A stretch of DNA of 64,000 nucleotides from the sequence record PX930851.1; one strand, written 5' to 3'. The notes beneath the pieces were generated by a model, which made no database searches, was not told the DNA's origin, and saw nothing but the letters and a program-made list of their open reading frames with translations. Shown piece after piece: positions 18,806 through 23,454 of this stretch (its first letter is position 1; every line of letters starts with the position of its first letter). This stretch comes from a phage. Made by a program: the position numbers and the translations under genes.

Positions 18806-19774
18806 TTATTTCAGAAGAGTAACCTCAGCGATTTCTTCCCAACCGTTTTTGTCGGTCATAATAAAGTCAGCAAGATAAAGTGCAGTACGCAGTGAAACAT
18901 TGCGTAAACGGTTAACATTGACTTTCATCCATGATAATGCTTTATAAGTTTCTTCATCAGAAAGACCGCGTTTTTGCATCATGTCAGTTGAAAGAATAAC
19001 ATCTTCAACCCTGACCATAATTTCTTCATTAGTGTGAACACCCAAATCTAAATAAACTGAGCGGGAAACTAATGCTTGTAAATGTGGAGCAAGTTTAGTA
19101 CCACGGTCTAATTCGCGGTCAATGTCAACGTTTGTGATAAAAACAATCGTTCCTTTAAATTCAAACTCACGCTCAATGCCTTTTTCTTCTAAGTAAGAAG
19201 ATGCGGTGCTCCAGCAGACTTTACGGGTCTCTCCGGTGTCCAGAGCAGCTTTCAGAAGATTAAGAATGTCCATATCAGAGAAAACATCCACATCATCAAT
19301 CAAAAGGACAGAATTCTCTTCACGATTATTCCAAAGCTGTTCATAAAGACCGATACCAGAGATTTTACCATTAATGCTTTTATATTCGATGTATCCAATA
19401 TCATTTGCTTTATTTAAAGCTTTATCTAAAGAATACGTTTTACCAATACCTGCTGCTCCAGAGATAATTAATGAACGAATGTTTCCGTTAATAATACCAT
19501 TCGTCATCATTCCCATAACATTAAATCTTTTATTAATGCGGGTTTTCATATCTTCATACGATTCTTTAACTTCTTCAACTTTTACACCATCATATGAAAT
19601 GTCTGATTTGTAAACCCAAACACCGCGACGCTTACCGTCAATTTCAACAAAAACTTTACCATCTCCTTGTGCATCTACCGGAGCATTATCTGGGAACCAT
19701 TCACCTAAGAGCTCAAAAGTTCCAGAGATTTCTTTACCGAAGTAGATACCCTTATTGATAGTTACAGTTTTCAT
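18806..19774 (-). CDS. P-loop NTPase (AAA-like ATPase), 322 aa
   Basis: Walker A GAAGIGKT; Walker B VLLIDDVD; start at ATG 19774 (GGAG RBS) below early promoter. Confidence 0.65.
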   Translation of the reverse strand: MKTVTINKGIYFGKEISGTFELLGEWFPDNAPVDAQGDGKVFVEIDGKRRGVWVYKSDISYDGVKVEEVKESYEDMKTRINKRFNVMGMMTNGIINGNIRSLIISGAAGIGKTYSLDKALNKANDIGYIEYKSINGKISGIGLYEQLWNNREENSVLLIDDVDVFSDMDILNLLKAALDTGETRKVCWSTASSYLEEKGIEREFEFKGTIVFITNVDIDRELDRGTKLAPHLQALVSRSVYLDLGVHTNEEIMVRVEDVILSTDMMQKRGLSDEETYKALSWMKVNVNRLRNVSLRTALYLADFIMTDKNGWEEIAEVTLLK

Positions 19775-19810
19775 TTTATTCTCCAATTTTACATTTGTTT
19801 TGATAGGGTA

Positions 19811-19843: not shown

Positions 19844-20107
19844 TTATTTTAATGTTTGCCAAATTTTTACTGCTTCACGACGAGATACTTCTACAGCTCC
19901 AAGTTCTACAGCTTTTTGGCGTCGCCGAGCGTGTAAGTCATAATGTTTAATGCGTTTATCTTGAAACCAAGAACGTTTCATTCCTATTGCTTCTGCCATT
20001 TCGTGAAGCTCTTCAATATCTCCATCAGTGAACATATGACAATTTTTAGTTGGATGACCGCGAAGTTTCCATCCATGATTCATTAAAACATCTACGTAAA
20101 CTGTCAT
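19844..20107 (-). CDS. hypothetical protein, 87 aa (resembles DUF4031-type small phage proteins, from memory)
   Basis: MTVYVDVLMNHGWKLRGH...HYDL pattern. Confidence 0.45.
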   Translation of the reverse strand: MTVYVDVLMNHGWKLRGHPTKNCHMFTDGDIEELHEMAEAIGMKRSWFQDKRIKHYDLHARRRQKAVELGAVEVSRREAVKIWQTLK

Positions 20108-20253
20108 TGATTCTTCTCCAAATAAGTTTCGATAATTTTCTGGGCGAGATAAACCGCGTTATCTTCAGTTGCGTCTTCCAAGAAACTTTCAAAACACTCT
20201 GAAATTTCTTCTGTATCAATCAACTTTTTTACTTCAATTGGTGTAATTTTCAT
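20104..20253 (-). CDS. small acidic ORF, 49 aa
   Basis: first ATG after early promoter 20290-20319; stop overlaps next ATG. Confidence 0.35.
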   Translation of the reverse strand: MKITPIEVKKLIDTEEISECFESFLEDATEDNAVYLAQKIIETYLEKNQ

Positions 20254-20289: not shown

Positions 20290-20319
20290 ATAGTACCATA
20301 AAGCTTTATGCTTGTAAAC
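20290..20319 (-). promoter_or_regulatory. phage early promoter
   Basis: -35 GTTTAC, 18-nt spacer, TATGGTACTAT; UP element AAAAATTTTTCACAAAAC; immediately downstream of terminator. Confidence 0.6.
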
Positions 20320-20340
20320 CGTTTTGTGAAAAATTTTTGA

Positions 20341-20367
20341 AATAAAAAAGGGAGCCCGAAGGCTCCC
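20341..20367 (-). terminator. intrinsic terminator after nucleotidyltransferase gene
   Basis: 7-bp stem GGGAGCC-UUCG-GGCUCCC followed by UUUUUUAUUU. Confidence 0.7.
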
Positions 20368-20369
20368 TA

Positions 20370-21383
20370 TCATTTATAATAACTTCGATGGTTTTCAAGA
20401 TAAACCTGTTCGAGGAAATTATTCCAAAAGCTCATATCTACTGTTTTAGGCATACCGTTCTTAGAAGCTTCAGTAGATGCTGCTTCTACTTGATCAACCA
20501 CATCTTCCAAAAACTCTTGAACTGTTTTAAATGGATGTTTACCCAGCTTCACGTCGAGAATAAATGGAGCATCTTGGAGTGGATAAACCAAGTCGCCAGT
20601 TTTGTAAATTTCCAATAGTTGAAGTCCACCACGACAAGCATGACTTAGTGCTTTCCAGTCAATGCCTTCATTAGCTTCGGCTTTACGAGCACGTTCACCA
20701 TATTCAGCATCTAATTTATTCAGTGACTGCTTAAGCTCGATAAGAGAAAGTGTTGTCTGATATTTACGACCCAACACAGTGTAGAACGTTTGCGGGCCTG
20801 TTTTCTCGTGATTATGGAACACCCATTCACAGAACTCATTTTCAGGGAGTCTGTGTTTGATATCTTCTATCTTAGTACGACGAAGTCTATCAGGGATTCC
20901 TTCTTGATAGTCGACCCACTGGTCAGGGATTTGATTAACTACTTTTAATACATCACGTAATGCGGCCAAACGAGAACCCTTGACACCGTATTTAGAAGCT
21001 TGCTTGCGGACATATCCTAAATAGGATTTCATGTTAGTTGTATAAAACCGTGAACGATTGTCTTGGATAAATTTCCATACATCAGGCAAATCAGATTTAA
21101 CCACTAGTTCAGGCGGAGTGTGAAGCATATCCAATGCTACAGTTTCACCATCTGCTGCTAATTTAAAGAAATACTTAAGACTGTATAGTTCATGGTCAAT
21201 ATCATCTTTAGTGTTTTTAGATGATGTGTTGTTAGTGTTTTTACTCATATGCTCTTTAACATTTCCGATAAGAATATCGCGAGCACGAGGAACAAAGATT
21301 TCTTTAAAATCTACATCAGATTCTGGAGTAGAAGTTCCATAAAGATGACTACCAAAATAGCTTTTCATTACTGTTTTCATCAT
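20370..21383 (-). CDS. predicted Pol-beta-superfamily nucleotidyltransferase, 337 aa
   Basis: N-terminal motif YFGSHLYGTSTPESDVDF (G-S...D-x-D) and later hxhD (VALDMLH); start overlaps upstream TM gene stop. Confidence 0.6.
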   Translation of the reverse strand: MMKTVMKSYFGSHLYGTSTPESDVDFKEIFVPRARDILIGNVKEHMSKNTNNTSSKNTKDDIDHELYSLKYFFKLAADGETVALDMLHTPPELVVKSDLPDVWKFIQDNRSRFYTTNMKSYLGYVRKQASKYGVKGSRLAALRDVLKVVNQIPDQWVDYQEGIPDRLRRTKIEDIKHRLPENEFCEWVFHNHEKTGPQTFYTVLGRKYQTTLSLIELKQSLNKLDAEYGERARKAEANEGIDWKALSHACRGGLQLLEIYKTGDLVYPLQDAPFILDVKLGKHPFKTVQEFLEDVVDQVEAASTEASKNGMPKTVDMSFWNNFLEQVYLENHRSYYK

Positions 21384-21841
21384 TCAGCCTTATATTCAAT
21401 AACAGGACATACTTTAGCTTTACGAGCTTTTAAAAATTCGACGATAATAGATTTCTTGGGTTGAATAGGAGGTAAACCTTTATACGCCCTATCAATATTT
21501 TCTACATGTAAAGCATAATCCTTTTTCCATTTATAATCTTTATATTTTTCACGCAAATGTGCAGGAATAACAAATGAACCGATAATAAGTAAAACAACCA
21601 AAAGCGCAAGTATAAATGCTGATGGAAGCAAAGTCCATAAACTACCAAAAATAAGCCAGCGCTGTAAACTTTCTGCACAAATAATTGTCAGCCCTACGAG
21701 TATAGCACACCCAAAAATAGAAACGAAAAATGTAGGGATAACAATAGACCAAAAGTATGCACATAGCGTCTTAGGTCGTTGCCATTCGTCGTTAAACAAT
21801 TTGAATAATTTATAATGCCAAGAGTTTTCATTAATAATCAT
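21380..21841 (-). CDS. membrane protein, 153 aa, three predicted TM helices
   Basis: three hydrophobic stretches in the N-terminal 100 aa; basic C-terminal tail. Confidence 0.6.
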   Translation of the reverse strand: MIINENSWHYKLFKLFNDEWQRPKTLCAYFWSIVIPTFFVSIFGCAILVGLTIICAESLQRWLIFGSLWTLLPSAFILALLVVLLIIGSFVIPAHLREKYKDYKWKKDYALHVENIDRAYKGLPPIQPKKSIIVEFLKARKAKVCPVIEYKAE

Positions 21842-21843
21842 AA

Positions 21844-22365
21844 TTATCCTTTCATTGGAGGCGTAACGGTTGTTAAATACTTAATCATAGCTTCAGCTTC
21901 TGATTTTGATAATGAAATTTCTTCATTGTTTTGACGAATAGAAATAAAATCCGGATGACGGTCACCACCAGCTTTTAAAACACACATATAAGTATCAACT
22001 TCGCCTTCAATATTTGAAATGATTGAAGCAGTTCCACATGAATGCGGTTTTTGATAAATCAATACAGCTTTTCTTCCACCGTTTGACTGTTCATAGGCTT
22101 TTAATACATCAAGCAAATCAGTTCTTTTATCAATAGCTAAAATATTATTTTCATCTTCAATGTTAAATCCTTCGGATACTTCATAAAGCGTTACCCATAA
22201 ATCACCGATGTCAATAACAGCATTTACTTTTCCACGGCTTTCAAGAGTATGACAAATTTTCTTGATTTCGTCATAACTCATTTTAATAATATCATCTCCT
22301 TGACTAAGAAAGATGTCATTTTTAAATTCAACACGAATTAAACCACTTCCACTTGAAATAAACAT
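21844..22365 (-). CDS. hypothetical protein, 173 aa
   Basis: ATG 22365 with GAGGAAAT RBS; C-terminus resembles upstream neighbour. Confidence 0.55.
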   Translation of the reverse strand: MFISSGSGLIRVEFKNDIFLSQGDDIIKMSYDEIKKICHTLESRGKVNAVIDIGDLWVTLYEVSEGFNIEDENNILAIDKRTDLLDVLKAYEQSNGGRKAVLIYQKPHSCGTASIISNIEGEVDTYMCVLKAGGDRHPDFISIRQNNEEISLSKSEAEAMIKYLTTVTPPMKG

Positions 22366-22371
22366 ATTTCC

Positions 22372-22905
22372 TCACTTTGAAATCATAGTTGGAATGACAG
22401 AATCAAGATAAGTCTTTAGTGCAATAGCTTCGTCTTTGGTAAATGTGACAATATGTGCTCGAGAATCATCAATTTGGCGAATAGTTAAGACATCTCCCTC
22501 TTCATAACATTTTGATACATTTAAAAGAGTTTCATCATTCTGATTGCAATCGTTAGTAATAATAGCATTGCAATTTTTGAGCCATTTTAAACTATGTTTT
22601 CTTTCATTAGAATAATAAAAATATTTAATCTTAGCTATAAAACTATCCCAATGAATAACTGATAAACACATTGACTCACTTTTAATATTAAATCCTGGGC
22701 ATGAAGAATAAAAATGAATTTTGTGCTCATCATTGATGCTTACTATTTTATCAGTATAAGGATATTCAATTTGGGTTAAATGAATGATTTCACTAGGCGT
22801 AAAATACAGCATATCGTCTTCTTGCGTCAAACGATACATGTTATTTACTTTTTCTATAGCCAATTCACCAAAAAGCGGACTAACTTCTAATACTAATCGT
22901 TTCAT
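22372..22905 (-). CDS. hypothetical protein, ~177 aa
   Basis: track start at 22929 is non-ATG; ATG 22905 (MKRLVLEV...) preferred. Confidence 0.5.
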   Translation of the reverse strand: MKRLVLEVSPLFGELAIEKVNNMYRLTQEDDMLYFTPSEIIHLTQIEYPYTDKIVSINDEHKIHFYSSCPGFNIKSESMCLSVIHWDSFIAKIKYFYYSNERKHSLKWLKNCNAIITNDCNQNDETLLNVSKCYEEGDVLTIRQIDDSRAHIVTFTKDEAIALKTYLDSVIPTMISK

Positions 22906-22931
22906 ATTGATTCTCTTCGACTCGCTCACAA

Positions 22932-23036
22932 TTACATACTCCTTTGAATAATATCAATAATGTTGTTCACCAGATTATAAGTAAACATTGGGTAATTATA
23001 TTGAATCATCACATACACAACAAACAAAACTTTCAT
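22932..23036 (-). CDS. possible leader peptide/small hydrophobic ORF, 34 aa
   Basis: ATG 23036 with AAGGAG RBS, ~20 nt downstream of early promoter. Confidence 0.25.
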   Translation of the reverse strand: MKVLFVVYVMIQYNYPMFTYNLVNNIIDIIQRSM

Positions 23037-23064
23037 TCTCTTCTCCTTGGCAGTTGACAAGATT

Positions 23065-23094
23065 ACTATACCACAACCTTGCCAACTTGTAAAC
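23065..23094 (-). promoter_or_regulatory. phage early promoter
   Basis: -35 GTTTAC, 18-nt spacer, TTGTGGTATAGT. Confidence 0.6.
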
Positions 23095-23096
23095 CA

Positions 23097-23270
23097 TTAA
23101 ATGACGTTTTCAATAAAATTTTGAAGCTTTGTGTGAGCATCAACCATGATTTTCATTTCTTCTTTGGCGAAAGCTGTACCTCTTTCCCGAGAAGAACACT
23201 CATAGTCAGAAACTGCATTAGCATATTCTTCAATTAGTTTCATTAAAAACATCTGCTTTTCAGTTTTCAT
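23097..23270 (-). CDS. small ORF, 57 aa
   Basis: below track cutoff; ATG 23270. Confidence 0.35.
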   Translation of the reverse strand: MKTEKQMFLMKLIEEYANAVSDYECSSRERGTAFAKEEMKIMVDAHTKLQNFIENVI

Positions 23271-23454
23271 TATTCCACCTAATTATTTCAAGATATTGAA
23301 CTAACTTAGCTTTAGATTTATCCAAATCCTTTTTAGCTGCTTCTATACCGTCGTATGAATATCCTTCACAATGCTCAACTGCTAATTGATATGAATCTAT
23401 TTCAACATCACGTGCTAATTTAATGATTTTTTCAAACTGTTCATGTGTTAGCAT
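23260..23454 (-). CDS. hypothetical protein, 64 aa
   Basis: ORF track. Confidence 0.45.
   Translation of the reverse strand: MLTHEQFEKIIKLARDVEIDSYQLAVEHCEGYSYDGIEAAKKDLDKSKAKLVQYLEIIRWNNEN

Follow-up and report, generated by a model that had tools for sequence, protein, structure and literature searches.

NrdC.11 of a T4-like phage: an RlaP-family nucleotidyltransferase with a probable role in RNA repair, and its early transcription unit

The analysis concerned positions 20335–23100 of a 64,000-nt stretch of phage DNA (record PX930851.1; the whole stretch is called the window below), where the features described here lie on the minus strand. The region holds the early transcription unit nrdC.11–mobD.2, and the phage is T4-like, a Tequatrovirus with the RB32/T2-type arrangement. 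The evidence makes it likely that NrdC.11, the nucleotidyltransferase (NTase) encoded at the end of the unit, is an RNA-repair enzyme of the RlaP type acting as a counter-defence accessory, that the other four genes are separate, and that the membrane protein encoded directly upstream is not its dedicated partner. Since the genes and the family assignment were already known, the finding is an ordinary one: annotation of the block goes back to the T4 and RB32 genomes, the activity of the NTase family has been published, and T4 NrdC.11 is a named member, so that its importance as a discovery is small.

NrdC.11 and the RlaP family

The gene at the centre of the analysis is the following:

20370..21383, minus strand: nrdC.11, 337 amino acids (aa), Pol-beta-superfamily nucleotidyltransferase of the RlaP family (PF10127)

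The protein matched the RlaP family PF10127, scoring 42.3 bits (E 9.4e-11) where the Pfam gathering threshold is 23, a comparison that an earlier note on this DNA, made from the sequence alone, had proposed. It also matched phrog_388 (E 1.7e-136) and was 94–95% identical to T4 NrdC.11 (NP_049709, 'nucleotidyltransferase'), which is likewise assigned to PF10127, and to the RB32ORF095c ortholog. Homologs number in the thousands, and PF10127 was present in nearly all among the matches listed. In the public records, many NrdC.11 orthologs are misnamed 'thioredoxin', and one is called an 'HNH homing endonuclease'.

Conservation was examined in an alignment of 119 homologs sharing 24–95% identity. 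Residues G11, D23, and D63 were invariant (119/119), while S12 and D25 were each conserved in 118 sequences, which bears out the Pol-beta signature previously read as GS at residues 11–12 followed by SDVD. As for the hxhD element that the same reading had placed near residue 85, an acidic residue (E or D) occupies this position in 117 of the 119 sequences but falls within a predicted helix; the strictly conserved third aspartate is D63. Because D63 is both strictly conserved and situated on a predicted beta-strand, we infer that the third catalytic carboxylate is more plausibly this residue than position 85. The predicted catalytic core is composed of G11-S12, D23, D25, and D63, and this motif set is intact in the protein encoded here. 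Additionally, K244, H248, and R251 of the C-terminal domain were found in all 119 homologs.

A 253-aa protein encoded on a Bacillus thuringiensis plasmid, which covers PF10127 positions 19–249 with 77 bits, was used as the canonical reference RlaP. When the profile of the NrdC.11 clade was aligned to this protein with hhalign, the match had a probability of 99.7 (E 2.6e-26) and extended over residues 2 to approximately 135 and 236–327, spanning both the N- and the C-terminal domains. This end-to-end match identifies NrdC.11 as a full-length RlaP bearing an insertion of about 100 residues, located roughly at 137–235. A 338-aa homolog from Deferribacter, likewise of the long form, covered PF10127 profile positions 2–246. 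Canonical 253-aa RlaP genes are carried by phage-like plasmids, namely B. thuringiensis pAM65-52-3-235K (locus L159) and a B. pumilus plasmid (L161); the neighbours of RlaP on the Bacillus plasmids include nrdEF and the genes for thioredoxin, thymidylate synthase, and thymidine kinase, a setting that resembles the T4 nrdC–tk region.

The AlphaFold2 (AF2) model of NrdC.11, built from the 119-sequence alignment, had a mean predicted local distance difference test (pLDDT) value of 87.9 and a predicted template modelling (pTM) score of 0.76. It comprises an NTase core, a C-terminal helical domain, and a terminal helix at 317–336; the crystal structure of PfRlaP is described as having an interdomain cleft and a C-terminal helix packed against its NTase domain. 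Among solved structures, the model matched only Pol-beta-superfamily NTases, with modest scores (DrrA, ANT/KNTase, MNT), and its C-terminal helices gave HEPN-like structural matches; in BFVD, many phage and giant-virus NTases were matched over the full length. Searches of NrdC.11 against PDB sequences, with the single sequence as well as with the profile, returned nothing or noise, PfRlaP being evidently outside the set searched.

The membrane protein and its relation to NrdC.11

The five open reading frames (ORFs) that the earlier note had placed in this region, all on the minus strand, were recovered at the same positions in the ORF list. The 2.8-kb region is approximately 95% identical at the DNA level to hundreds of Tequatrovirus genomes, and the same five genes are annotated in RB32 as mobD.2, mobD.1, 'similar to mobD.1', 'similar to RB69ORF104c; replaces mobD', and nrdC.11. 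The block is located between nrdC and rI, where the earlier note had placed it. In T4, the slot between nrdC.11 and mobD.1 is occupied by mobD, which encodes an HNH homing endonuclease, whereas in our stretch, as in RB32 and T2, it holds the membrane protein gene and a second y05I-family paralog. A tblastn search of the 12-kb T4 nrdC–tk region found neither the membrane protein gene nor the second mobD.1 paralog. The operon is not conserved universally, yet it is a T4-type gene block that had already been annotated. The gene that fills the slot encodes a small membrane protein:

21380..21841, minus strand: membrane protein, 153 aa, RB69ORF104c-like (phrog_944, E 8e-51)

The earlier note had paired this protein with the NTase and had taken the overlap of the two genes to imply coupled translation. 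At their junction, ATGATGA, the start of the NTase gene does overlap the stop of the membrane protein gene, with an extra Met codon relative to T4, and the same type of overlap with the membrane protein gene is seen in Tequatro-, Mosig-, and Dhakavirus. However, in Jiaoda- and Karamvirus the gene whose stop is overlapped encodes a soluble, unrelated protein of 121–141 aa, and elsewhere the NTase start overlaps a ProQ_C-like gene (a Klebsiella phage), another gene (Angelvirus), or mobD (T4). The overlap thus occurs with any upstream gene; it is present but not specific to this pair, and we rejected it as a sign of functional coupling. Regarding these other genomes, the Jiaoda-, Karam-, and related Klebsiella phages carry a different gene set that either separates the membrane protein gene from the NTase gene or directly precedes the NTase gene. 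It is composed of three genes encoding proteins of approximately 190 aa, 73 aa, and 121–141 aa (or a ProQ_C-like protein), the last of which overlaps the NTase gene (L005, 4489–5685; L006, 4453–5660; L013, 2801–4004).

The linkage between the two genes was then measured from both sides. Among 54 viral loci encoding homologs of the membrane protein, retrieved with flanks of up to 8 kb, an NTase gene was located downstream on the same strand in only 22 (gap 3–1,207 bp), apparently in T4-like contigs, while about 30 had no NTase in the retrieved flank, including jumbo phages. From the NTase side (n = 77), the membrane protein gene was adjacent in 13 loci, lay 350–2,600 bp upstream with intervening genes in 33, and was lacking in 30. 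Across 80 NTase loci, the membrane protein gene co-occurred with the NTase in 46, compared to 53 for rI, 51 for tk, 47 for rI.-1, and 37 for nrdC.10, all neighbours with unrelated functions. Because it co-occurs no more often than rI or tk, the gene order is no evidence of linkage, and the conserved order of membrane protein gene followed by NTase gene was rejected as an indication of a functional connection after this rI/tk synteny control.

Frameshift or truncation alleles of the membrane protein lacking the conserved N- or C-terminal motif were identified in T2 (P0124), Bas43, CE1 (P0127), and others. In Bas43 (TadeuszReichstein; L158, 1208–2973), the broken membrane protein allele sits next to an intact NTase ORF of 1,014 bp; the y05I genes and mobD.2–mobD.5 are apparently missing from this phage as well. 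Together with the search for homology to signalling modules, in which the membrane protein had no PADLOC, Pfam, or PDB match, these make five independent tests, all of which speak against a dedicated partnership with the NTase.

The protein itself is one of a very large, unnamed family that is marked by a distinctive motif and has no known-domain relative. A cut-off of E<=1e-3 gave 2,204 representative clusters, most of which are stand-alone proteins between 110 and 190 aa long; members occur in jumbo phages and other types besides the T4-like ones, in many cases without an NTase gene (loci L014–L068). The N-terminal SWH...LCxYFW motif of the family continues into the first of the hydrophobic segments, and behind it come a variable hydrophobic core and a basic C-terminal KAxKxKxCPxIE motif, with C27, Y29, C145, and P146 invariant in a sample of 40 family sequences. 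No match to the protein was obtained in Pfam, PADLOC, or, by profile search, the PDB, and no Pfam family was found among 40 diverse family members; PHROGs places it in the category 'moron, auxiliary metabolic gene and host takeover'. Three transmembrane helices had been proposed for it. The hydropathy profile displays two long hydrophobic segments (25–60 and 62–98) between basic N- and C-termini, and the AF2 model, which was of low confidence (pLDDT 63, pTM 0.28) and was not used for fold searches, likewise contains two long helices. The assignment as a 153-aa membrane protein stands, but it most likely has two transmembrane spans. With two helices instead of three, both conserved termini would be on the same side of the membrane, probably in the cytoplasm.

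Probable RNA-end repair and the alternatives

The addition of nucleotides to RNA by this family was demonstrated by others, with bacterial homologs only. The Pseudomonas enzymes PfRlaP and PaRlaP add one or two nucleoside monophosphates (NMPs) onto the 3'-OH of RNA, which was the sole acceptor among E. coli macromolecules, and RlaP was required to restore the aminoacylation of over-damaged tRNA; the product is chemically compatible with 5'-P ligases, and T4 NrdC.11 is named in the same study as an RlaP of sequence similarity network (SSN) cluster 5 (Carruthers, Fatma & Huang 2025 preprint, PMC12776372). In jumbo phages, the distribution of RlaP mirrors that of RNA ligases, and the enzyme was predicted to replace nucleotides taken by RloC-type enzymes (Iyer et al., PMC7824862), whose wobble excision had been proposed to defy T4 repair (PMC2610378).

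The genomic surroundings of several NrdC.11 relatives point in the same direction. In Sinorhizobium phage phiN3, the nrdC.11 homolog is flanked by two RNA ligase genes; in Roseobacter phage DSS3P8, it lies within a tRNA gene cluster; marine phage-like contigs encode an RNA ligase of PF09414 approximately 600 bp upstream of NrdC.11 relatives; and a Deferribacter megaplasmid carries an NrdC.11 homolog and RtcB in a same-strand cluster. Like PfRlaP and PaRlaP, NrdC.11 passes the Pfam threshold, shows full-length profile homology with three strictly conserved Asp residues, combines an NTase domain with a C-terminal helical domain, and has relatives near RNA ligase or RtcB genes. It differs from them in its SSN cluster (the Pseudomonas enzymes fall in cluster 1a), in its insertion, and in that nrdC.11 of T4-like phages is outside any RtcB or RNA-ligase operon.

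By homology with the bacterial enzymes, NrdC.11 would most likely be a template-independent NTase adding one or two NMPs onto the 3'-OH of broken RNA, mainly tRNA. Such an activity could restore nucleotides lost to host ribotoxins, for example to RloC-type, wobble-excising anticodon nucleases, and the phage's own healing and sealing proteins, Pnkp and Rnl1/Rnl2, would finish the repair with a 5'-P/3'-OH ligation chemistry that suits the product of an RlaP. T4 has Pnkp, Rnl1, and Rnl2 encoded elsewhere in its genome. We infer the shared activity, the tRNA target, and the cooperation with Pnkp and Rnl from the family relationship and these contexts. NrdC.11 would then be a non-essential counter-defence accessory enzyme, and mobD.2, the two y05I paralogs, and the two-span membrane protein would be separate accessory early genes, placed on one transcript as a result of the dense, overlapping arrangement of early genes in T4. 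The tolerance of T4 to deletion of nrdC.11–mobD.3 (PMC9825161) fits an accessory counter-defence role. An anti-defence enzyme had been listed earlier as an alternative of its own; this idea is retained in part, as RNA repair in a phage also has an anti-defence role, and it does not constitute a separate explanation.

T4 is the phage that defined RNA repair, and a role of NrdC.11 against anticodon nucleases is presumed. Because the chemistry of T4 Pnkp and Rnl1 exactly fits the RlaP product, T4-like phages provide a clean setting in which to ask if RlaP can defeat anticodon nucleases that excise nucleotides, such as RloC; the resistance of RloC to phage repair has been a standing question since 2008.

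Several points weigh against an RNA-repair role for NrdC.11. The NMP-addition activity is carried over from Pseudomonas RlaPs of a different SSN cluster, and the insertion of about 100 residues could change the choice of substrate. Single-sequence Pfam matches across the NrdC.11 clade extend over profile positions ~20–150 of 249, and for this reason full-length membership was tested by the profile alignment described above. In this window and in the T4-like loci examined, the neighbours are y05I, the membrane protein gene, and nrdC.10, with no RNA ligase or RtcB gene adjacent; going by the T4 map, we take the RNA ligase and pnk genes of T4-like phages to be away from nrdC.11. Literature searches found no experimental work on NrdC.11 itself. 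Finally, the order of membrane protein gene followed by NTase gene on the same strand is kept across several genera and may reflect a loose functional link.

The insertion also bears on the idea that NrdC.11 has the RlaP fold and another acceptor, such as tRNA 3'-CCA ends (in their maturation or repair), a host protein (as when the MNT antitoxin AMPylates HEPN RNases), or a small molecule. The clade-specific insertion may redirect specificity, the tRNA-cluster location in DSS3P8 fits work on CCA ends equally with anticodon repair, and there are weak, sub-threshold matches to MntA and NTP_transf_2. These matches are far under their cut-offs, however, with PF01909 at 13.3 bits against 21 and the NCBIfam MntA model at 13.2 against 60, so the comparison with minimal NTases proposed in the earlier note came out negative. 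Bacterial RlaPs took only RNA among E. coli macromolecules, and the repeated RNA-ligase and RtcB neighbourhoods favour a ligation-coupled role; we consider a different acceptor rather unlikely.

A further explanation would make the NTase and the membrane protein the two components of one module, in which a nucleotide or oligonucleotide signal made by the NTase gates or controls the membrane protein, as in the cyclic-oligonucleotide-based antiphage signalling system (CBASS) and Hailong, or in which a decoy signal from the phage NTase keeps a host membrane effector such as HalA closed. This is close to the nucleotide-second-messenger immune module whose layout the earlier note had recognized here. 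In Hailong, the NTase HalB makes oligo-dA and HalA forms an ion channel in the membrane (Tan et al. 2025, as summarised in the review PMC13276650); going by this summary, Hailong is a bacterial defence system, in contrast to the early gene block of a lytic phage, and a pairing of the HalB–HalA type was not seen here, where the NTase and membrane protein genes have no specific linkage. The likeness of NrdC.11 to HalB is confined to the generic NTase core (16% identity, Foldseek template modelling scores (TM-scores) of 0.23–0.40 over the HalB chains), with no sequence-profile match between the two, and the membrane protein profile had no PDB relative, hence no link to HalA was found. With the CBASS cyclases (SMODS, cGAS-like), NrdC.11 shares the GS...DxD core of the Pol-beta superfamily, but its C-terminal domain is of the RlaP type. 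Neither Pfam nor PADLOC gave a cGAS/DncV-like nucleotidyltransferase (CD-NTase) or SMODS match, and the best-scoring CD-NTase structure, 8ysd, was hit by Foldseek with an E of 0.13, a probability of only 0.10, and a TM-score of 0.14; PADLOC, run on four of the locus proteins, returned nothing relevant. The full-length homology of NrdC.11 is to RlaP, and the genomic evidence also argues against a module: linkage does not exceed that of rI or tk, in many genera the two are separated by one to four unrelated genes, the overlap is generic, T4 has mobD in place of the membrane protein gene, some 30 of the 54 membrane protein loci lack an NTase in the flank, and Bas43 keeps its NTase intact beside a frameshifted allele. 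A two-component module is accordingly very improbable, and the three readings that the earlier note had treated as equally good are not so, since the evidence favours RNA repair over a second-messenger module. PF10127 membership, full-length RlaP homology, the ligase, RtcB, and tRNA gene neighbours of relatives, and the naming of T4 NrdC.11 as an RlaP all speak for an RNA-repair NTase.

The membrane protein, possibly together with the y05I proteins, could be the important element of the unit, as an early membrane effector (superinfection exclusion, host takeover, or anti-defence) independent of the NTase. The large and conserved family of 2,204 clusters, in which Cys27 and Cys145 never vary and the motifs at both ends are conserved, the position of the gene behind an early-type promoter, the PHROGs category, and its presence in many phage types without an NTase are consistent with such a role. 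Against it stand the missing known-domain match (Pfam, PDB), the low-confidence structure model, and the frequent frameshifting or absence of the gene in Tequatroviruses, the T4 region included. We regard this as a possibility to be entertained tentatively; it is compatible with, and not opposed to, the RNA-repair explanation. That the two-span protein is a genuine but dispensable partner, which in some T4-like phages tethers the RlaP NTase to the inner membrane or regulates it there, or else represents a new class of early phage membrane effector, appears very unlikely; if true, tethering of the NTase would create a membrane-localised RNA-repair or signalling module.

Unit boundaries, small genes, and surroundings

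The remaining features of the unit, together with the promoter that follows it, are:

23065..23093, minus strand: early-type (sigma-70-like) putative promoter, TTTACA, 17-nt spacer, TATAGT, with an extended -10 TG; 10/12 match
22932..23036, minus strand: mobD.2, 34 aa (phrog_3515, E 3.7e-22), annotated as mobD.2 in RB32 and T4
22372..22929, minus strand: mobD.1, y05I family (PF24449, E 1.5e-38; PF24448, E 1.8e-21; phrog_1502)
21844..22365, minus strand: second y05I paralog, 173 aa (PF24449, E 2.2e-33; PF24448, E 6.6e-22)
20340..20368, minus strand: intrinsic terminator, AGGGAGCC-UUCG-GGCUCCC followed by a T-run
20290..20318, minus strand: next early-type promoter, TTTACA-17-TACTAT with TG

The unit had been described as bounded by an early promoter and a strong terminator, and both elements were read in the sequence. 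The consensus match and conservation of 23065..23093 suggest that it functions as a promoter, and the terminator hairpin (20368–20349) has an 8-bp stem with six GC pairs and a UUCG loop. The promoter at 20290..20318 comes directly after the terminator, starts the downstream unit (a 49-aa ORF, a DUF4031 gene, and nrdC.10), and marks the 3' boundary of the nrdC.11–mobD.2 unit. The promoter upstream of mobD.2, the terminator, and the following promoter are all sequence-identical in T4, where nrdC.11 is likewise located directly upstream of the terminator and downstream of the early promoter.

The 34-aa ORF at the head of the unit, which had been taken for a leader, exists but is the conserved small gene mobD.2, with homologs at 54–62% identity in Mosig-, Jiaoda-, and Karamvirus loci (tblastn). 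It is followed by mobD.1, whose product has 185 aa if translation begins at the GTG (22929) and 177 aa if it begins at the ATG (22905), the start annotated in RB32; the protein is 86% identical to T4 MobD.1. Both y05I proteins were above the Pfam cut-offs, with 115–132 bits for PF24449 and 77–78 bits for PF24448 (cut-offs 24.9 and 27, respectively), and Pfam labels the family 'putative transcription factor'. The earlier note had correctly recognized them as paralogs of about 175 aa but had limited their similarity to the C-termini; the two proteins share 27% identity by BLASTP (E 4e-8) over their whole length. Profile searches of the y05I proteins against the PDB gave no match, and a literature search on 'y05I' gave no relevant paper.

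Downstream of the unit, an 87-aa DUF4031 gene and the 49-aa ORF (19844–20253, minus strand) are situated between nrdC.10 and nrdC.11 with their own early-type promoter. In T4 and RB32, only about 115 bp of intergenic DNA separate nrdC.10 and nrdC.11. A DUF4031 homolog was present in 10 of the 80 NTase loci. NrdC.10 (18806–19786, minus strand) contains a Walker A motif (GAAGIGKT), and its matches to AAA/STAND-NTPases were sub-threshold only. On the other side of the unit, mobD.2a and mobD.3 (23097–23454, minus strand) encode tandem DUF7438 (PF24219) paralogs, with E values of 3.7e-15 and 3e-16. Small mobD.x genes are misnamed 'molybdopterin-guanine dinucleotide biosynthesis protein MobD' in public records, apparently through a confusion of gene names.

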